A DNA stretch of 64,000 nt from Pseudomonadota bacterium (GTDB lineage Bacteria > Myxococcota > JACRCW01 > JAFGSX01), in assembly GCA_043821645.1 (NCBI GenBank), contig JBDRCO010000031.1:1-64000 (forward strand), read 5' to 3'. This document shows, piece by piece, positions 33,544-63,926 of this stretch. The position numbers and the translations under genes were made by a program. The notes below the pieces were generated by a model. It was not told the DNA's origin and searched no databases. It was given only the letters and a program-made list of their open reading frames with translations. Position 1 is the first letter of the stretch. Each line of letters starts with the position of its first letter.

Positions 33544-33733
33544 ATGAGCACACCTCCTGCACCGATAGTGATGCCCATGTAACGGCCGAGGGTATGCGCG
33601 CAAGCCACTTTTTTTCGGCGGATATCGGCCACCTGTGAACCGGATGAGCCAGTGCTACCCGCGTCCGGGTCCTCGGCCTCGGTCAACCACATGAAATAAG
33701 GATGCCTTCAACACAAGGCGCGGCTCCCCGCAG

Positions 33734-55559: not shown

Positions 55560-56627
55560 CTAGCGGATCTCCAGGTGCAGATGATCGGCGTGAGCCTCGT
55601 TGCTGGCGGGGGTCAGCACCACGTCGAACAATCTGGCTTCCCGGATCCGCTGCACCAGCTGTCGCAAGAAGGCCTGGCGTTCTGCGGTGCCTGTCCAGTC
55701 GCGCTGCACCTCGATCGCCGCACCCTCGCTGCGCTCGAAGCCCACCACATCGATGGCCAGACCACGGCCGTGGCCGCTGAGGGAACGCGTGCCCGCGATG
55801 CTGCGGCAGTTGAAGGTGCCCACGTGTTGCACCTCGACCACGCCGGCCTCGGCCAGCAGCGCCGCCAGCCTGTCGAGCACAGGAGCAAAGCGGCAGGCGA
55901 CCAGCAAATGTTCGGCAAAACGTTGCCCGGCCTCGCGAAAGTCCACACCGTGCAGGGGGCTCGCCAGCAGCACAGGGGTATCGACCTGGCAATGCGTGCT
56001 GATGGGCAGCGGATCCCCCTCCCGGGCCGCCCTCGCCAGCGAGTCCTCCAGGTCGGGCCGGCTGTACTGCAGGCCCATCCTGTCCAGCTCCTGCGTGCAC
56101 TCGGTGGCGGGAGGCTGCGTGCCGAGGTCTGGCAAGCACACCAGGCGGGTCAGGTTGTCGCGCAGCCTGAGCACCGTGGCGCAGGCATAGCCGGGCCGGC
56201 AGCCACTGGTGGTGAGGTGCAGGTTGCAGCGCGCCACGCACACGCCGTGCTGTGAGAAGCTGGGGTCTTCCATGCAGAAGGTCTGTGAGTACAGATCCCC
56301 CACACGGTCCGGACAGGTGTGCTGGCAGGGCAGGGTGCAATGTCCTCCCGGAAACCCCTCTTCGGGCAGCAGGCAAAAGCCGCCTTCGAAGATGCAGTCA
56401 GCATCATGCTGGCAGGGGGAGCCCACCCAGCCCGGATTGAAGCTCAGATCCGCAGCCGCGGGACCCAGGTCTGCCACCGTGGCATCTTCAGGCGTGGCCA
56501 CGGCAGCATCGGGCTGGCTGGCGAGATGGGCTTGCTGTCCGGCCGACGAGGCCCAGAGCGCAAAGGCCCCAAGCGCGATCAGCACGGGGACAAGGGTCAC
56601 TGCCGTGAGTCGCGGCCTCGCTTCCAT
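55560..56627 (-). CDS. Extensin-like C-terminal (M15/LAS peptidase-like) protein with N-terminal anchor and Cys-rich domain
   Basis: GTFNCR...LSGHGRGLAIDV...TP-x-x-N-x-x-HADHLHL, plus an N-terminal TM and a Cys-rich PGGHCT-x-x-C module. Confidence 0.8.
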   Translation of the reverse strand: MEARPRLTAVTLVPVLIALGAFALWASSAGQQAHLASQPDAAVATPEDATVADLGPAAADLSFNPGWVGSPCQHDADCIFEGGFCLLPEEGFPGGHCTLPCQHTCPDRVGDLYSQTFCMEDPSFSQHGVCVARCNLHLTTSGCRPGYACATVLRLRDNLTRLVCLPDLGTQPPATECTQELDRMGLQYSRPDLEDSLARAAREGDPLPISTHCQVDTPVLLASPLHGVDFREAGQRFAEHLLVACRFAPVLDRLAALLAEAGVVEVQHVGTFNCRSIAGTRSLSGHGRGLAIDVVGFERSEGAAIEVQRDWTGTAERQAFLRQLVQRIREARLFDVVLTPASNEAHADHLHLEIR

Positions 56628-56685
56628 GCGCACCTCACATCCTGACTCGCCGAGTCTATGCCACAGGGTGAGGTCTGCGAGGGGC

Positions 56686-56711
56686 AAAAAAAAACCGCGG
56701 CGAACCGCGGT
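56686..56711 (-). terminator. Rho-independent terminator
   Basis: Minus strand ACCGCGG-TTCG-CCGCGGT running into a T9 tract. Confidence 0.88.
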
Positions 56712-56781
56712 GATAAAAAGAATAAAGGGGCAAGGAACGGCTGGACCGGGGGGGGGAGTCCGCACCGAACCGCTGCCCCAC
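56686..56781 (-). ncRNA. Candidate sigma54-dependent small RNA (about 96 nt) with C9 apical loop, Pxr-like context
   Basis: Bounded by a sigma54 promoter and an intrinsic terminator. Folds GGGGCA/TGCCCC, GCGGTT/AGCCGT, GGACT/GGTCC around CCCCCCCCC. Confidence 0.75.
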
Positions 56782-56792
56782 CCCACCTAAGA

Positions 56793-56807
56793 GCAGTATC
56801 CATGCCA
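56793..56807 (-). promoter_or_regulatory. sigma54 -24/-12 promoter
   Basis: Minus strand TGGCATGGATACTGC with exact GG-N10-GC spacing. It predicts +1 near 56781. Confidence 0.78.
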
Positions 56808-56899
56808 GGACGATGGAATAAAAAAAATGCTTATTATTCAATAGCCATTCAGAATCGACGGCAGCTGGGCTGCGGTATAGTTGTGGCGGATACACCACT

Positions 56900-56920
56900 G
56901 TTTCTGATGTGATCAGTAAC
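56900..56920. promoter_or_regulatory. Candidate enhancer (UAS) palindrome
   Basis: GTTTCTGAT-GTG-ATCAGTAAC has 8/9 arm symmetry and lies about 120-140 nt upstream of the predicted +1. Confidence 0.45.
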
Positions 56921-57000
56921 TATTTGTAATCGCTAATAAATAAGTATGTCGTAAATACCACGCAAAGAGGCAAGTTTACCTCATTTGATAACACTATGTA

Positions 57001-57486
57001 TTATTTGGATAAATCGATGAGATTGCGAATGCTTGCGCTCAGATCGTCCGGTGTTGCCGAGTCCGCCACCCAGGCCACGCGTTCGTCACCCCGTGCCACA
57101 GTCGTCCATCGGTCAAGTTCCCTTGAAAAATCATAGGAGATCAGGATGGGCACCGCCACCAGGCCCGCCTGCCGGATGGCGCGGTAAATATACAGGCCCT
57201 GATTTTTTTCTAAAAAAGACCATGCTTCATCAAGTGTTGCAGCATATCCATCAAGAACCTCTTGCGGGTCTCCCAGCAGCAGTTGACGAGCTGTTCGGTC
57301 AAAGCGCATGTCCAGAAAGACCAGCTGGGTAGGAGGTTTTAACTGCAGTATCCTCAAGGCCGTTGCTCCATCGTGGGCCTGTTGGATCTGCAACCCAGGT
57401 AAAAAAGCCACGAAGTTCTCGAAGTACTCATTTCCATCTTCGACGATCAGTAAACTGGCGTTGAGTTCGTTTTTTTGGGGTATCAT
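57001..57486 (-). CDS. Stand-alone atypical receiver (REC) protein
   Basis: LLIVED, AHDGATAL, VFLDMRFD, internal insertion, VPILIS. No obvious conserved Lys-Pro. Confidence 0.8.
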   Translation of the reverse strand: MIPQKNELNASLLIVEDGNEYFENFVAFLPGLQIQQAHDGATALRILQLKPPTQLVFLDMRFDRTARQLLLGDPQEVLDGYAATLDEAWSFLEKNQGLYIYRAIRQAGLVAVPILISYDFSRELDRWTTVARGDERVAWVADSATPDDLSASIRNLIDLSK

Positions 57487-57498
57487 CTTGGGGTGTAT

Positions 57499-60336
57499 TT
57501 AACTCGCTACGTAGGGTAAAAAAACCACCACTTCCTTTTCCCAGGCTGCTGTGGACCGACGTACTTTCATGCTGCCCCCACACCTCTGCAGCGTTTCCAG
57601 GACCAGACCCAGGCCCCGATCAGGGGGCCTCTGTCTGACATCATCCATGGACAAGGTGGAGCTGGCCAGGTCCCCGACGGCCAGGGCCAGGCGCACGTGA
57701 CCGGTGACGGGGTGGGTCTCGAGTGTCAGGTGGAGCCCAATTTTGAGTGGAAGTTTGGCTTCAGCTATTTCTGCCAACGCTGCATTTCTAAATAGATTAT
57801 TCAAAATCAGTTGTAGTGATTCTGGGGCCAGGCTCAGGTGCAGGGGCCACTCCAGGGTGGAACTCAACTGCAAGGCCTCGGCAGGTGTTTGCGCCAGCCC
57901 CGGTTCGCGCAGGGTGGCCTCGAAAGTCCTGACAAACCAGCTGGCATCCAGGGGCGCGCTGCGAATCTGCTCGATCAGCTCCTGCATGCGCAGGTAGGCG
58001 TCCGTGTTCAACGCAGCCGAGGCGCGCTCGAGTGCCTGGCACACCCGAGTACGGGTCCTGGGGTGCTCGAGCCTGGCCTCGACGATCTGGTCTTGAATGC
58101 CGGCGAGGATTGAAAAGCCTTTGAATATTGGCGCAATGGAATCATCTTTGAAGCGCACGTTGAGGCGTGACCCGGCACCTCGTGCGAGTTCTTCGAGCTG
58201 CAGCACATGGTGCCGGAAACGGCCAGAGGGGCTGTCCTCGCCACCCTGGGCGAGCTGGCGGACCCGCTGCAACTGGGCCTCGGTGGCCTGCCCGGCGCGC
58301 AAGGATTCGGCCACACCCTGCAGGATCATGGTGTTGTGCTTGAGCACCTCGTGGTGGATGGAGGACAGCAGGCGCTTCACCTCCGCGCTGCTGTCGGGGT
58401 AGCGCAGCACGAAGCGCTGCAGATCCAGGCCGCCGAAGCGATACCGCAGCAGCCAGGCCAGGGCACTTGCCACGCCCAGAACCAGCAGCAGCGGGAGCAG
58501 CGCGCTGGCCCAGGCGGCCCGGGTCAAGGCCCCCTGCAGCTCTGCACGACGCTCGAGCAAGGCGCTGCCCGCAGGCAAGGGGTCCAGCACGTCCAGCTCG
58601 ACAAGGCTGCGCAGCAGGTCGGGCAGCAGGCTCCAGGACAACCAGGCCGGGCCGTGGCGGGCTCGTGCCAGGTGCAGCTCCCCCAGGTAGAGCGCGGCCT
58701 CGGCGTCGCCCAGAGCCAGGCCTTGGTCCAGAGCGGCCTGGGCAGCGGGCAGTTGGCCCTGCTCGAACAGGATGCTGCCGAGCTGGGTATGGACATCGGC
58801 CTGCCCGGGATCCAGGCGCAGGGAATCCGCCAGGGCCAGGGCTGCCTCATCCAGCTGTCCGGCAGCGTGCAGGATTCGGCCCTCGAGGGCGCGCAGGCGG
58901 GCATCCGGGAGGTCCGCACCCAGGTGGCGGAGGGTCGCCAGGGCAGCGGCCGTTTCGCCCCTGGCAAGCAGCGCGCGGGCTCGGTTGAGGCCCTGCAAAC
59001 CGCCCTGCCGAAAGCTGCCTTCAGATCCCAGTGCTGAGGTGATTTCTAATGTTGATGAAAGGAGTTCCCCTTCTTTGCTCAAGCTCTTGACGAGGTTTGA
59101 TTGCAGGGCCTGGGCCTGGGTTCGGCCAGGCTCGGGGGGTTGGGCTGCGAGGTACTCCTGTACCAGCTGCAGGGCGCGCGGCAACTGCCCGCTGCGCCTG
59201 AGAGATTGAGCCAGCTTGAGCTTGAGCTCTATCCAGTCGGGGCGCAGTTGCAGGGCGCGGCCAATGAGGGCGATGGCCTCCTGCACCCTGTTGTCGTCCA
59301 CGTGTTCGAGGTAGAGCTCGCCCAGCCGGGCGTGCAGGTCGGCGCTCGACTGGTCGAACACCAGGCCCCGCAAGTACTCGAGCTCGGCACGCTGCCTGTC
59401 CCCCTGAACCCGCCAGGCGTCACCCAGCAGCAAGCGGGCCTCGCTGTAGCCCGGCGCCTGGGCCAGGGCCTGCTCCAGCAGCGCGACGGCCTCGCGGGGG
59501 CGTCGGCGCTCGACCAGGGTACGGGCGCGCTCGAGCAGCAAGGCCGCCTCGTCGCCCGGGGCACTGCTGCCCGCGCTCCAGCCGAAGCGACGGGCCTGCA
59601 GCTCCACCTCGACGCGCCACATGCGATCGCGCGCGGCGTCGCCAAAGGGGCCGTCGGCGTCGACCCGGCTGTACCAGGACAGGGCCTCATCCAGGCTGTC
59701 GTGGTCGCGGAACAGGTCGCCCAGCTCGAGCACCAGGGTCTCGTCGTCCACGGTCAGGGCCAGTGCCTCGCGGTAGAACTGCACCGCCTGCTCGAAGCGC
59801 TCGAGGCGCGAGGCCAGCCGCGCCTGGTGCCGGATCAGATCCGGGTCGTTGGCCTGGGCTGTCCGCAGGGCCGCGAGACGGCCCGCCAGGTCCTCGAGCT
59901 GCACCACATCCACATCCTCGCGCAGCACCTGGTCGACCACGGCCAGCACCACGTCGACGCGGTCGGGGGCCAGCAGCATGGCCTGCTGGAGCTGGGCCCA
60001 GGCCTCGGCGCCGTGGCCCAGGCGGACCTGCAGGCGACCCAGCTCGAGCACCACGTCCACCGCCTGTGGGGCCATCTCCTGGGCCTCGGTCAGCAGCTCC
60101 AGCGCGGACAGCAACTGGCCCTGCACGATCTCCTCGCGGGCCAGCCGCAGGCTCTCCTCGGCCTGCTTGAGCAGGATGTCGTCGAGCAGCTGCCGCACCT
60201 TGCTGAGGTCCTTGAGGCTGGACCCTGCCTCGCTGGATCCGCCATCCACGGGCTCGTCTGGCGACCGCGCCCGGGCCGGGGCGGCGAGCAGGCAGACCAG
60301 CACGAGCAGCGCGCTCGCTGTGGGCAGGCGTGTCAC
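57499..60336 (-). CDS. TPR-repeat membrane sensor histidine kinase-like protein
   Basis: Signal peptide, many TPRs, a TM helix, H-box-like IHHEVLKHN, N-box ILNNLFRNA, degenerate G1 (VGDLAS), G2 RGLGL. GTGA overlap with the upstream gene. Confidence 0.78.
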   Translation of the reverse strand: MTRLPTASALLVLVCLLAAPARARSPDEPVDGGSSEAGSSLKDLSKVRQLLDDILLKQAEESLRLAREEIVQGQLLSALELLTEAQEMAPQAVDVVLELGRLQVRLGHGAEAWAQLQQAMLLAPDRVDVVLAVVDQVLREDVDVVQLEDLAGRLAALRTAQANDPDLIRHQARLASRLERFEQAVQFYREALALTVDDETLVLELGDLFRDHDSLDEALSWYSRVDADGPFGDAARDRMWRVEVELQARRFGWSAGSSAPGDEAALLLERARTLVERRRPREAVALLEQALAQAPGYSEARLLLGDAWRVQGDRQRAELEYLRGLVFDQSSADLHARLGELYLEHVDDNRVQEAIALIGRALQLRPDWIELKLKLAQSLRRSGQLPRALQLVQEYLAAQPPEPGRTQAQALQSNLVKSLSKEGELLSSTLEITSALGSEGSFRQGGLQGLNRARALLARGETAAALATLRHLGADLPDARLRALEGRILHAAGQLDEAALALADSLRLDPGQADVHTQLGSILFEQGQLPAAQAALDQGLALGDAEAALYLGELHLARARHGPAWLSWSLLPDLLRSLVELDVLDPLPAGSALLERRAELQGALTRAAWASALLPLLLVLGVASALAWLLRYRFGGLDLQRFVLRYPDSSAEVKRLLSSIHHEVLKHNTMILQGVAESLRAGQATEAQLQRVRQLAQGGEDSPSGRFRHHVLQLEELARGAGSRLNVRFKDDSIAPIFKGFSILAGIQDQIVEARLEHPRTRTRVCQALERASAALNTDAYLRMQELIEQIRSAPLDASWFVRTFEATLREPGLAQTPAEALQLSSTLEWPLHLSLAPESLQLILNNLFRNAALAEIAEAKLPLKIGLHLTLETHPVTGHVRLALAVGDLASSTLSMDDVRQRPPDRGLGLVLETLQRCGGSMKVRRSTAAWEKEVVVFLPYVAS

Positions 60337-61985
60337 TCGCCGCGCAGCTCCCTGACCTTGAGGCCGACCTGGTTGAGGCGCAGGCGCACCGCCCGCGCTC
60401 TGTCGGCGCTGCCCAGCAGCACCTCGGCCATGGCCGCGAAGTCGCCCCGGCAAGTCCGGAACAGCTGGCTCAGGTACTGCCGCTCGACGTCGTTGGCCAC
60501 GGCGTTGAGGGTGCGCCCGGGTTGCAGCAGGACGGTGTAGCCCTCGCTCCGAGGGGCCCCCGGCGGTGCTGCGGGTGGGGTGCGCACGGCGCTGCGCAAC
60601 AGCTCGCCGACCAGGCCGGTGTCGACCTGCAAGCGGCGCGAGCGCAGGGGCTGGCCGCTGCGCAGCAGGTCCACGGCTCCAACCAGGGTGAAGCTCACCA
60701 TGCTGTGCAGGACCATCGCCAGCTCGCGCATGTTCCCGGGCCAGGCATGGCGCCGCAGCTGCGACCACACCGGATCCGGCAGTGACAGCACCAGATCCTC
60801 GTCGGAACTGGCCCGGCCGCCCCCACTGCGGCCGAGCTGTGCGCGCAGCGGCGTCGTGGCAGCCAGGCCTGCGGCGCGGGCGATCTCGGCCTTGAGCGGC
60901 GCGTGGTCCGGGTGCTCACCGGCGCGGGCGACCAGGGTGCTGGCAAGGGCTGGAAGGTCGGCAGGGCGCTCTCGCAGCGGCGGCACCAGCACGCGCGCCG
61001 CGGGCCCCAGGCGCATGTACAGGTCCTGGCGAAAGGTTCCGGCCTGCACCGCCAGCTCGAGGGGCTGGTTGCTGGCGGCCACCACCTTGACGTCGACCGC
61101 TTGCTCGGCAGTGGCGCCGAGGGGCCGCACGCGCCGCTCCTGCAGCACCACCAGCAGCTGCTTTTGCACCTCCAGCGGCACGTTCTGCACCTCGTCCAGG
61201 AACAGGGTGCCGCCGTGGGCGAGCTGGAAGGCGCCCTTGCGATCGCTCACCGCGCCGGTGTACGCGCCGCGCAGCGCTCCAAACAGGTGCGCCGGCACCA
61301 GGTCGCGGGGCACCGTGCTGAGGTCCAGGGTGACGAAGGGGCCGCGGCGAGTGCTCTGGCGATGCAGCACGCGCTCGGCCAGAAAGGATTTGCCGGTGCC
61401 TGTCTCACCCTCGAGCAGCACTGGCATGGAGCTGCGCGCCAGCACCGCCAGACGGCGCCGCACCGCATGCATGGCGCGGTCGCGGCCCCACAGCACCTCG
61501 CCGTCGTCGGCCTGCAGGGCGCGCTGTTCCAGCGCCTGGTGAATGCGGATGCGCAGGGTGTCCACGTCATCCGCGTCGAGCAGGTAGGTCATGGACTGCG
61601 AGGCCAGCTCGCCGCCTTCGTCGACCAGCGACAGATCCGCCTGGCTGGTGGCCAGCACCACGGGCAGGTCCGGGTGCAGGCGCCGGATCTCGCGCAGGAT
61701 GGCCACGCCCTGAAAGCGCCGGGTGCGACGGTCGCTGGCGCCCGGGGCCAGCGGTAGCAGCTGCGCGGCGTCGACATCGAAGCGCATGTCGAGCAGCACC
61801 ACGTCGACCTGGGCGGCGTGCTTGTTGAGGTAGCTCAGGGCCGCGGGCCCGCTGGCCAGGCGCGGTGGCTGGTCTGCTCCGGCGGGCTGCAACAGCTCGA
61901 GTTCGTCAAGCTGGTCCGCGACCACCTGGGCGTAGTCCAGCCCGTCGTCGATGACCAGGATCCTAGGACGGCTCGACTTGGCCAT
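60333..61985 (-). CDS. sigma54-dependent enhancer-binding response regulator (REC-AAA+)
   Basis: ILVIDD...LLDMRFD, GETGTGKS, GAYTGA, GTLFLDEV, FRQDLY-x-RL, WPGNMREL. GAGGAG RBS. Confidence 0.93.
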   Translation of the reverse strand: MAKSSRPRILVIDDGLDYAQVVADQLDELELLQPAGADQPPRLASGPAALSYLNKHAAQVDVVLLDMRFDVDAAQLLPLAPGASDRRTRRFQGVAILREIRRLHPDLPVVLATSQADLSLVDEGGELASQSMTYLLDADDVDTLRIRIHQALEQRALQADDGEVLWGRDRAMHAVRRRLAVLARSSMPVLLEGETGTGKSFLAERVLHRQSTRRGPFVTLDLSTVPRDLVPAHLFGALRGAYTGAVSDRKGAFQLAHGGTLFLDEVQNVPLEVQKQLLVVLQERRVRPLGATAEQAVDVKVVAASNQPLELAVQAGTFRQDLYMRLGPAARVLVPPLRERPADLPALASTLVARAGEHPDHAPLKAEIARAAGLAATTPLRAQLGRSGGGRASSDEDLVLSLPDPVWSQLRRHAWPGNMRELAMVLHSMVSFTLVGAVDLLRSGQPLRSRRLQVDTGLVGELLRSAVRTPPAAPPGAPRSEGYTVLLQPGRTLNAVANDVERQYLSQLFRTCRGDFAAMAEVLLGSADRARAVRLRLNQVGLKVRELRGE

Positions 61986-62364
61986 GTAACTCCTCGAGCA
62001 CCGCCTGGATGGCGGTGGACACGGCGCGCAGATCCCCCAGGGCGCGCGCGCGATCGAAGTCCGCGGCCTCGGCCCGGGCCACGTGCTCCCAGGCCAGGGC
62101 TCGCGCCACGGTGCGACACAGGTCCGGGTGGGCGGGAAGGTGCTCGAGCTGCCCAGCGGCCTCGTCGACAAAGGCCTGCCACAGCGCGCGCGCGGACTGC
62201 ACGCCTGAAGGTCCGCTGCGGGTTTGCAGCAGGGCGCGGCGCAGGGCCTGGTGCGCGAGCTCGGCGCTGGCATCCGCGGGCAAGAAGGTGACCGGCATGG
62301 CGAGGTGCTTGCCCAGGTCGTGCTTGAGGTCGAGCAACAGGTCCTCGAGTTCGGTCCTGGTCAT
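61963..62364 (-). CDS. Small helical protein with H-box-like motif (possible free phosphotransferase)
   Basis: LLLDLKHDLGKHL. Overlaps the start of the activator gene. Confidence 0.65.
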   Translation of the reverse strand: MTRTELEDLLLDLKHDLGKHLAMPVTFLPADASAELAHQALRRALLQTRSGPSGVQSARALWQAFVDEAAGQLEHLPAHPDLCRTVARALAWEHVARAEAADFDRARALGDLRAVSTAIQAVLEELHGQVEPS

Positions 62365-62636
62365 GAACCCACGCCCCTGGTTTTTCAGATGCGAAAACAA
62401 GATCGAGTCTATCATTTGTCGATCTCCACGCCAGGGCTGTCGTCCCTGGCCTTGTCCGGACGGCCTGTGAGCCCAGGTCACCTCTCGTCAGCCCTTCGCG
62501 GTGCGAGCGTCATGCCACGGCGGCGCTGCGGCCCGCGGGGAAGCCCGGTCTTGAAGAAGCGTCGAGCGGTGCACCTCCGGGCAGCAGGCGCTACGGCGTG
62601 GCGGTGTGCTAGCATGCAGGAGGACCGAGGGCCGGG

Positions 62637-63926
62637 ATGACGGCGAAGCAGCACTCCACAGGACTGGTGTTGGCGCTCTGGGCGCTGGTGAGCACTGTTG
62701 GCGCCTGCCCGGTGGGTGTGTCCCAGGAGACCTGTCGCAGGGACCTGGACTGCCCCGCGAACTTTCACTGCCTGGCCGGGACTTGCTCTCGCCTCGTGGT
62801 CGACGCCGCGTCGGTGGACGGGGCCACGCTCGACAGCTCGCGCACGGATAGGTTGCCTGTGGATACGGGTTTCGCGGACCACGCGGCATCCGACCTCACC
62901 ACACTGGACGGCACCCAGAACGACGGCCAGGGGATGGACGCCACGCTGCGGGACAGCAGCCCACCGGATCTCGGTGGCCTCGACAGCCCGGCGCCAGACA
63001 CGGCGTGCAGCGACGGGGGCGCGGCCGACGGCGCGGTGGCGGACACGGCCGTTTCAGACGCGTCGGCAGCGGATCTGCACCCACCGCAGGACGGGCCACT
63101 CCCCCTGGACGCCAGTCCTCCCGTCGACGTGGGGAGACCGGACCTGGCCACCGCTGCAGACTCAAGCGGTGGGGGGGACAGCAGCTGCTCGGGCCATGCC
63201 GGGGAGCTCTGCGCGCGCCCTGGCTTCTGCGGCGCGCGCTTTGATTGCTCCGGCACCTGCGTGGGTGGGTTCACGGCGGATCCCTGCCCGCAATGTGGTA
63301 CCCGGACCTGCGAGAGCCTTCTGAACTGGAGCGAGTGCCTGGGCGGCACCTGTGGCGCGCACTCTGCCTGCAATCCCTCGACAGGCTCTTGCCTGTGCAC
63401 GGTCGCCGAGTGCGCGGGGAGCTACTGCTGCAGCGGAGACCTCTGCGGCTGCGACGTCGACGCCTACGGATGTGGTGCCAGGACGGGCGTGGTCGAGAAT
63501 TGCCCCAGCAAGCTCTGCTCCGGCAACCCACCCGCCTGCGAGACTCCGCCCTGCGACGTCAACTGCGGCGGCTGCTGCGACAACACGGGCAGCTGCCAGC
63601 CCGGCTACGCTGACAGCGCCTGCGGCACCGGTGGCAGCCCTTGCCAGAACTGCCAGCTGCAGGACAACCCGTGCGTCGACTGGGACTGCTCCAATGATGA
63701 CTGCAACATCTACTCCTTCTCGGTCAACGGCTCGAGCTGCGGAGACAACAATGAGTGCTGGAGCACCGAGTGCGTGACCTGCGATGCACGGCACGACGAG
63801 ATCTGCTGGCTGCCCTGCACCTGCCAGATTGGCACCACGGCGACGACCGGGACCTACGATTGCTTCGGCGTCTGTCAGGAGGATCCGGGCTGCACCTGCG
63901 CCCAGCAATGCGCAGGCACGTGCTAG
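62637..63926 (+). CDS. Cys-rich lipoprotein with Asp/Ala/Ser-rich linker
   Basis: VGAC lipobox, C-x-x-D-x-DCP-x-x-x-x-C module, DA/DG linker, very Cys-dense C-terminal half. Confidence 0.75.
   Translation: MTAKQHSTGLVLALWALVSTVGACPVGVSQETCRRDLDCPANFHCLAGTCSRLVVDAASVDGATLDSSRTDRLPVDTGFADHAASDLTTLDGTQNDGQGMDATLRDSSPPDLGGLDSPAPDTACSDGGAADGAVADTAVSDASAADLHPPQDGPLPLDASPPVDVGRPDLATAADSSGGGDSSCSGHAGELCARPGFCGARFDCSGTCVGGFTADPCPQCGTRTCESLLNWSECLGGTCGAHSACNPSTGSCLCTVAECAGSYCCSGDLCGCDVDAYGCGARTGVVENCPSKLCSGNPPACETPPCDVNCGGCCDNTGSCQPGYADSACGTGGSPCQNCQLQDNPCVDWDCSNDDCNIYSFSVNGSSCGDNNECWSTECVTCDARHDEICWLPCTCQIGTTATTGTYDCFGVCQEDPGCTCAQQCAGTC

Follow-up and report, generated by a model that had tools for sequence, protein, structure and literature searches.

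The window under study, C31:1-64000, is a stretch of 64,000 nucleotides (nt) from G000, a 7.07-Mb genome that is 94.7% complete. Four tightly coupled genes are located on its minus strand. The first one (61963-62364) codes for a small protein of 133 amino acids (aa), a putative four-helix bundle with a histidine in an H-D-L-G-K motif (His15, codon 62322-62320). It is followed by the gene of a σ54 activator (60333-61985; 550 aa), which consists of a receiver domain (REC; D13, D14, D66 and T113, with Asp137 at the position of the conserved Lys), an AAA+ domain and a helix-turn-helix (HTH)-like end. The third gene (57499-60336; 945 aa) encodes a sensor kinase with a TPR region, a transmembrane segment, a His bundle and a HATPase_c fold, and the fourth one (57001-57486; 161 aa) a free REC with E16, D17 and D59, Asp142 at the Lys position and an insertion after β3. 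Small-protein and activator genes overlap by 23 nt, activator and kinase genes share GTGA, and 12 nt separate the kinase from the free REC. All four genes were thus found as described in a first-pass annotation of the window, which had read them as a phosphorelay pointing at an adjoining small RNA (sRNA) gene. The cassette is an undescribed variant of a multistep His-Asp system of uncultured myxobacteria-like microbes. Neither an account of it nor a match to the HEVLKH motif was found in the literature searched, which consisted mainly of openly available titles and openings of abstracts.

Related loci were collected with a profile of the small protein, which matched 350 clusters at 50% identity (188 of these with E≤1e-10) and led to 22 genome and 36 metagenome loci. 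The relatives are metagenome-assembled genomes titled Myxococcota, Polyangia, Bradymonadia, Nannocystaceae or Deltaproteobacteria. The same gene order was present in 27 of 29 loci long enough for all four genes, or in 25 of 26 after three duplicates were dropped. The exception, L022, has kept the small-protein and activator genes, and the kinase is absent from the next 8 kb. In L026, about 3.5 kb are inserted at the activator/kinase junction. The L026 contig is titled uncultured Enterobacterales; the high GC content of its cassette and the closeness to Myxococcota loci point to a misbinned contig. A kinase profile located the cassette in 17 of 401 genomes of the phylum, among them 12 of the 17 genomes of family f30 and none of the 172 genomes of family f11 (the 401-genome tallies include G195, on which no claim rests). 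The copies of f30 and of genome G029 form a divergent subfamily, in which kinase and REC genes were adjacent in 13 of 13 cases and the small gene was found in all nine loci reaching it. This subfamily had been overlooked by our first small-protein profile, which gave five matches in the 401 genomes, one of them weak and unrelated; a word-based search for kinase homologues returned just two proteins. That the genes belong together, as the first-pass annotation supposed, was borne out by the distinct long loci and by the divergent subfamily.

The histidine of the small protein is invariant. Among 155 aligned homologues, three of which are fragments, all 152 covering the position carry His15. Asp16 is present in 150 of 152, and the residue four positions after the histidine (H+4) is Lys19 in 147 and Arg in the remaining five. 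The median length is 133 aa (5-95% range 116-165). An in-frame ATG at position 62415, preceded by GGAGA at a distance of 7 nt, would extend the protein to 150 aa and may be the true start of the gene; two homologues start with a similar M-I-D. AlphaFold2 predicted the protein as a monomer with a predicted local distance difference test score (pLDDT) of 93.7 and helices at residues 3-26, 34-46, 58-73, 78-90/93-97 and 105-128. The model is an up-down four-helix bundle, helical almost throughout and already closed as a monomer, and its first helix displays H15-D16 in an H-[DE] box.

Database searches with the small protein in Pfam, NCBIfam, PDB sequences, Foldseek and the ESM Atlas returned nothing specific. 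The best match to PDB sequences was unrelated (E 0.086). When 139 members were compared with Pfam, Hpt was not among the matches listed (25 of 39 families), and each listed family was hit by three members at most. In a fold search the best Z was 9.8 and 38 chains had Z≥8, those listed being helical bundles of a generic kind. The P1 domain of CheA occurred at rank 50 with a Z of 7.7 (root-mean-square deviation, rmsd, 2.8; 101 residues aligned), which is no better than the Z of unrelated bundles. Apart from it, Spo0B, ChpT and Hpt were not among the best 50 fold matches, which does not exclude them. The first-pass annotation had proposed a carrier resembling the dimerization and histidine phosphotransfer (DHp) domain. 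Of this proposal, the helical bundle, its invariant histidine and the likeness to the His region of the kinase have held, whereas the model, a monomeric four-helix bundle, does not suggest the dimeric hairpin of Spo0B or ChpT.

The kinase starts with a segment that resembles a signal peptide by eye, followed by a TPR region of about 550 aa and a single transmembrane segment (residues 612-630; 58503-58447). His662 (codon 58353-58351) lies in an H-E-x-x-K-H-N motif conserved in 26 of 26 homologues. The "echo" between KHDLGKH of the small protein and HHEVLKH of the kinase, to which the first-pass annotation had drawn attention, is therefore not due to chance. Pfam detected neither HisKA nor HATPase_c in the kinase of the window; among the 26 homologues, 17 matched HATPase_c at E≤0.1 and none matched HisKA. 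In a fold search the C-terminal part was assigned to HATPase_c (best Z 16.0, rmsd 2.3, 134 residues aligned). The Asn of the N box, the Asp of the G1 box and the first Gly of GLG (G2) were each conserved in 26 of 26 sequences. In the AlphaFold2 model of the His region (pLDDT 90.1), the His helix is followed by helices of 12, 18, 12+7 and 34 residues. The region is thus a multi-helix element of about 130 aa and not a two-helix HisKA domain. No RNA data set was listed as a holder, and one 190-nt contig of the kinase gene that occurred in an RNA library is uninformative on expression.

After the histidine, the kinase His region and the small protein display the same series of helices in the AlphaFold2 models. 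With the divergent subfamily added, hhalign aligned both collinearly from the histidine over 113 columns (E 1.9e-4, probability 48%), a score that was reached by none of 40 block shuffles, by none of ten TPR decoys and not by the reversed profile. The small protein is probably a free copy of the enlarged His bundle of the kinase. Complex modelling covered one pair, the small protein with the REC of the activator, and lent weak support to their binding. The score was 0.50 compared to 0.00 for the best of three controls, the runs agreed in at least 86% of contacts, and the pLDDT of the partners was at least 85. For calibration, 116 of 157 solved pairs reached the mark, as did 2 of 215 mismatched ones; 18 of the solved pairs and both mismatched ones scored 0.60 or less, a range in which wrong passes outnumber right ones unless the guess had been likely in advance. 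On balance we consider it likely that the small protein is a phosphocarrier, whether it passes phosphate on or drains it.

The free REC is a paralogue of the activator REC (hhalign 99.3%, E 2e-20). Both share a D-M-[RH]-F-D motif, an insertion of 25-30 residues and Q-G; the insertion after β3 is specific to this family. All free RECs (121 of 121) and all activator RECs (41 of 41) carry the acidic pair and the phospho-accepting Asp. In contrast, the position of the conserved Lys, located by profile alignment to 32 ordinary RECs of G000, is occupied by Asp in every free REC (121 of 121) and in 35 of 41 activator RECs (one has Lys), compared to Lys in 32 of 32 ordinary RECs. The RECs of the divergent subfamily among the sequences listed also lack Lys at this position. 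At the Thr position, activator RECs have Thr (39) or Ser (2). Free RECs have Ala in 115 and Ser in 6 of 121 sequences, among them Ser in the window; in the set of 26 loci the distribution is 14 Ser and 12 Ala. By the definition of pseudo-receivers given in PMC12632262 both RECs of the cassette qualify, and the same text describes the mechanisms that activate bacterial pseudo-receivers as a mystery.

The histidine donors show the complementary feature. H+4 is Lys in 26 of 26 kinases and in 13 of 13 kinases of the divergent subfamily, compared to none of 38 canonical H-boxes (pattern matches in G000), which have N, T, S or Q at this position. H+4 is located one turn away from the His, and residues substituted at H+4 of Ypd1 are directed toward the receiver Lys (PMC6341664). 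Since an Asp occupies the Lys position of both RECs and a Lys is found at H+4 of both donors, the donors probably supply the catalytic Lys in trans; three invariant arginines (R64, R126 and R90) are alternative candidates for this role. At the level of sequence, a His-Asp-His-Asp series of presumed phospho-sites is present and conserved across the linked genes.

The output domain of the activator is that of a σ54-dependent regulator. Its AAA+ domain matches PF00158 (E 8e-54, 182 bits over a cut-off of 20.2), and Walker A and B motifs, GAYTGA and the Arg finger are conserved in 26 homologues. The protein is far below the cut-off of all activator models in NCBIfam, and its C-terminus is a divergent HTH-like segment assigned by eye, without a Pfam hit. 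Several cassettes are flanked by genes for secreted proteins ("secreted" meaning an N-terminal hydrophobic segment judged by eye). VIT-vWA proteins with C-terminal immunoglobulin-like (Ig-like) domains adjoin the cassette in L012, L018, L036 and G022, stand-alone Ig-like versions in L006, L015, L016 and L019 and as a fragment in G029, and a second family of small secreted proteins in L022, L024-L026, L028, L054, L056, L058 and perhaps L061. An unnamed double Ig-like C-terminal module (PPGDP...YFPFG) was noted on the VIT-vWA proteins (L018:6877-7419, minus strand; L006:6325-6831; L135:2704-3168, minus strand). It usually lies behind a σ54 promoter, occurs in 83 of 401 genomes and gives weak Pfam hits to Big_13 and DUF4625.

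Scored with our own weighted consensus (threshold ≥14), a σ54 site precedes the linked secreted gene in 11 of 17 loci (Pfam VIT/VWA/Big_13); G029, L024, L025, L026, L028 and L058 have no promoter of this score and were left out of motif discovery. The 11 upstream regions share a 15-bp palindrome with the consensus GCTACGAATCGTAGC, about KCTACRAWTYGTAGM. Its leave-one-out score was 115.9, compared to 83-95 in eight dinucleotide shuffles. Outside this sample, the palindrome was the top hit directly upstream of the VIT gene in seven of seven cassette genomes (G022 and six of f30, one of which, G259, was subsequently found to carry the cassette activator; the sites in G303, G340 and G370 were located by a scan of the whole locus). 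In 13 genomes with a VIT gene and without a detected cassette, 12 scores near the promoter were 6.0 or less and one was 8.0, a value reached by one of 200 shuffles; related genomes do not count as independent in this comparison.

In the window itself, the best palindrome match of the whole 64 kb, TCTATCATTTGTCGA (62408-62422, unstranded), is located at the 5′ end of the operon, where it overlaps the upstream ATG; one of 100 shuffles was as good. It is a candidate autoregulatory operator. A near-identical site is present at the same end of the operon in G029, and 18 of 58 cassette 5′ ends gave scores reached by at most five of 100 shuffles (about three expected). As a rule, the cassettes do not have a σ54 promoter immediately in front of the small gene. 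Among the 1122 σ54-like sites of G000, rank 2 is held by C31:74229 (minus strand), 12 kb from the cassette and in front of a gene for a secreted Ig-like protein of 131 aa that matches the Ig-like profile weakly (probability 8.8%, E 0.004). Rank 17 is held by C43:78847 (minus strand) in front of a vWA/VIT operon, and C96:19956 and C72:152025 are further candidate target promoters. Most likely, the output of the cassette consists of secreted-protein genes rather than the adjoining sRNA. Another strong σ54 promoter of the window, GTGGCACAGCGATTGCT at 33733 (plus strand), does not carry the palindrome.

Taken together, the explanation that we prefer, and that we hold to be about evenly balanced between right and wrong as a whole, is a lineage-specific multistep His-Asp relay with a regulon of secreted proteins. 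The extracytoplasmic TPR array would act as the sensor, probably of a protein or of the envelope state. The invariant histidine, the N box and the fold suggest that the kinase autophosphorylates His662 within its enlarged, maybe self-contained bundle. The small protein would carry the phosphate on His15 and exchange it with Asp66 of the activator, an interaction to which the complex model lends weak support, and the free REC would join the two donors, be it as an obligatory step, in the order kinase, free REC, small protein and activator put forward in the first-pass annotation, or as a side branch. In these transfers the donor Lys at H+4 may complete the Lys-less receivers, which would insulate the pathway from the ordinary two-component systems of the genome. 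Phosphorylated activator would then bind the palindrome and activate the σ54 promoters of secreted VIT-vWA and Ig-like proteins. It probably controls its own operon as well, via 62408-62422. Conceivably, the secreted protein feeds back on the TPR sensor in a ZraP-like layout. The most specific version, a private relay in which the four-helix His bundles of kinase and carrier lend their H+4 Lys to cognate Lys-less receivers and which ends in the secreted VIT-vWA/Ig regulon, is put forward tentatively, being in our estimate less likely than not to hold in every part by a wide measure.

Several observations weigh against this relay. The homology of small protein and kinase hangs on the H-box, without which E rises to 0.029 in the same register, and narrower profiles of both gave P values of 0.02-0.18. 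The complex model passed weakly and provided no interface; the pass may mirror a likeness to solved complexes of His donors and RECs. Both receivers are devoid of the conserved Lys, Ala prevails at the Thr position of the free REC, and the kinase has D-R-S-P as consensus in place of the GxG of the G1 box. On the output side, the palindrome was derived from 11 hand-picked promoters with individual leave-one-out scores down to 2.4. Six of the seven positives outside the sample belong to one family, and the -12 boxes are weak in four of them. The VIT-Ig gene is found beyond the cassette genomes as well, in 83 of 401 genomes compared to 17 for the kinase and nine for both. Finally, the targets in the own genome were picked from 1122 sites, so some of them will be due to chance.

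An alternative is a scheme in which the kinase phosphorylates the activator directly and the small protein and the free REC act as a drain or brake, i.e. as a sink, a phosphatase-like decoy or a competitor for the activator REC, with the same target genes. Given the close paralogy of the two RECs, a single kinase might act on both. A separate copy of the kinase bundle might also work in the opposite direction or as a decoy, and the complex model of small protein and activator REC gives no direction. However, the cassette breaks into small protein plus activator on the one hand and kinase plus free REC on the other (L022 and L026), which suits a relay, and the invariant carrier histidine would be needless for a pure decoy, though needed for a sink. 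We regard the drain as possible but rather unlikely. It is improbable that no phosphotransfer is left at all and that pseudo-receivers work by partner switching between the kinase bundle, the small protein and the RECs, with His and Asp kept for binding or metal coordination. The loss of the catalytic Lys from both RECs, the frequent Ala in the free REC and the missing GxG of the kinase are in line with such a system. Its difficulty is the invariance, across proteins of about 30% identity, of four phospho-sites (two His and two Asp), of the acidic pockets and, in the kinase, of the Asn of the N box, the Asp of G1 and the Gly of G2, which is hard to account for without chemistry.

The third alternative concerns the sRNA gene behind the cassette. 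A σ54 promoter, CTGGCATGGATACTGCT (56792-56808, minus strand), is located 193 nt past the stop codon of the REC gene on the same strand and precedes a Pxr-like sRNA (56686-56790, minus strand), which is predicted to form a hairpin with a loop of nine C residues (z -2.3) and a terminator. Promoter, C-rich hairpin and terminator are real. The sRNA belongs to a multi-copy family. G000 itself has a second copy (C87:224610), G021 has five, G029 has one and G011 has a weaker one. Rfam gave nothing at gathering score in the window and terminator-type chance hits alone near the sRNA. The sRNA is below the cut-off for Pxr (RF01812), which was reached in 20 of 21 f11 genomes as a positive control; conversely, Pxr loci match our sRNA model weakly (E 0.001-0.02). 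The 5′ stem is not identical to Pxr letter for letter; both have only the σ54 promoter and the C-rich loop in common. The C87 copy (C87:224610-224790; L136:2609-2790) forms two C-rich hairpins, its middle part AAGTCACCTTGGAAG resembles a Pxr segment, and its second hairpin recurs in G029 and in one G021 copy. In G021 (C497:37760-38656; L087-L089), three copies are arranged in tandem about 400 nt apart, each with its own σ54 promoter. Two of them score 11.4 and 6.5 for the cassette palindrome, and no cassette was detected in this genome.

Position and the Pxr-like character of the sRNA favor a relay that drives this promoter, as PxrK and PxrR drive pxr, be it as a conserved function or by local co-option, and the sequence across the REC stop, 203 nt upstream of the promoter, weakly resembles the palindrome. 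However, the sRNA was found beside the 3′ end of none of 40 other cassettes (25 loci, G022, G110, G029 and 12 of f30), a count in which two flanks are shorter than 600 nt and the lineage-specific sRNA model could overlook distant forms. G021 (96% complete) carries its five copies without a detected cassette, and cassette and sRNA are on different contigs in G011 and G029. The best palindrome score at the sRNA promoter was 3.8, which was equalled by 287 of 500 shuffles (162 of 300 with a refined matrix), and the promoter ranks 97 of 1122 for the palindrome. Moreover, when compared with the activator gene product encoded upstream of Pxr in G117, the cassette activator has an identity of 34.6% and six other activators of G000 have 42-44%, and the kinase was found in none of the 172 genomes of the Pxr-bearing family f11. 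Because of the absent linkage, the sRNA copies without cassette and the missing palindrome, regulation of the sRNA by the cassette activator is quite improbable; most likely, the sRNA adjoins the cassette by chance and is under the control of a different activator. Of the sensor-to-sRNA module proposed in the first-pass annotation, the conserved self-contained four-gene unit has held and the sRNA as its output has not.

GC content drops to 45-62% at 56750-58250, from the sRNA through the REC gene into the 3′ part of the kinase gene, compared to 67% genome-wide. Downstream of the sRNA, the product of a gene at 55560-56648 (minus strand) begins with a hydrophobic segment and has Cys-rich repeats as well as an Extensin-like_C domain (PF06904, E 4e-26); a Cys-rich relative is encoded near the G029 cassette (L100:10286-10663). 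On the other side of the cassette, a divergent gene (62637-63926, plus strand) encodes a lipoprotein-like protein of 429 aa, rich in Cys and Asp, without a Pfam match and without a homologue in other cassette loci. In L029 and L065, the gene upstream of the small gene codes for a small protein with a winged-helix-like end (GRARxTRY) and not for a secreted protein.

KinA-Spo0F-Spo0B-Spo0A and CckA-ChpT-CtrA are multistep phosphorelays with a free phosphotransferase, and LuxU-LuxO is a relay of the histidine phosphotransfer (HPt) type that leads to a σ54 activator. In Spo0B and ChpT, dimeric DHp hairpins are combined with a degenerate catalytic (CA) domain. Like these relays, the cassette comprises a kinase, a free receiver, a free His protein and a DNA-binding output, and the carrier resembles the His domain of its kinase. 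In contrast to Spo0B and ChpT, the carrier has no CA remnant, is predicted to be a monomeric four-helix bundle and is encoded together with all other parts in one operon. A monomeric up-down four-helix bundle with one conserved histidine is also typical of HPt proteins such as Ypd1 and CheA P1. According to PMC6341664, HPt proteins typically have Gly at H+4, and Lys67 of Ypd1 is located three residues past His64. The cassette carrier shows the reversed order, with G at H+3 and K at H+4, and has its histidine on the first helix. A precedent for a kinase with a His domain that does not need to dimerize is the monomeric HWE/HisKA2 kinase EL346 (PMC10359499). EL346, however, is soluble and its dimer face is blocked by a LOV domain, whereas the cassette kinase has extra helices after the His helix.

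With ZraP-ZraSR and NtrB-NtrC the cassette shares a membrane kinase and a REC-AAA+ activator. ZraR drives a linked σ54 promoter for a periplasmic protein as well as its own operon, according to PMC4987338. Differences are the two extra relay proteins, the TPR sensor, the Lys-less receivers and the other secreted targets. PxrK-PxrR-pxr of Myxococcus xanthus (RF01812) resembles the window in that genes of a σ54 activator system lie upstream of a σ54-dependent sRNA with a C-rich loop; pxr is located behind its two-component genes, according to PMC5684412. Unlike there, the sRNA of the window stays under the Pxr cut-off, the activator is not the best match to PxrR in G000 and the linkage is not conserved.

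Gene adjacency had misled the first reading of the cassette output, and the Lys-less receivers, the predicted monomeric bundle of the carrier and the linked genes for secreted VIT-vWA and Ig-like proteins had been overlooked. If the relay works as proposed, the small proteins, which form at least 188 clusters at 50% identity and have no Pfam model, represent an additional histidine phosphocarrier family, separate from Hpt, Spo0B and ChpT. The cassette provides a clean test of whether pseudo-receivers devoid of Lys accept phosphate when the partner supplies it. The sensor apart, its proteins are small enough for reconstitution in vitro, and binding site and targets have been predicted. If the Lys is indeed supplied in trans, seemingly dead pseudo-receivers would be active with their cognate donors only, which would represent a new mechanism of specificity and a natural orthogonal relay.

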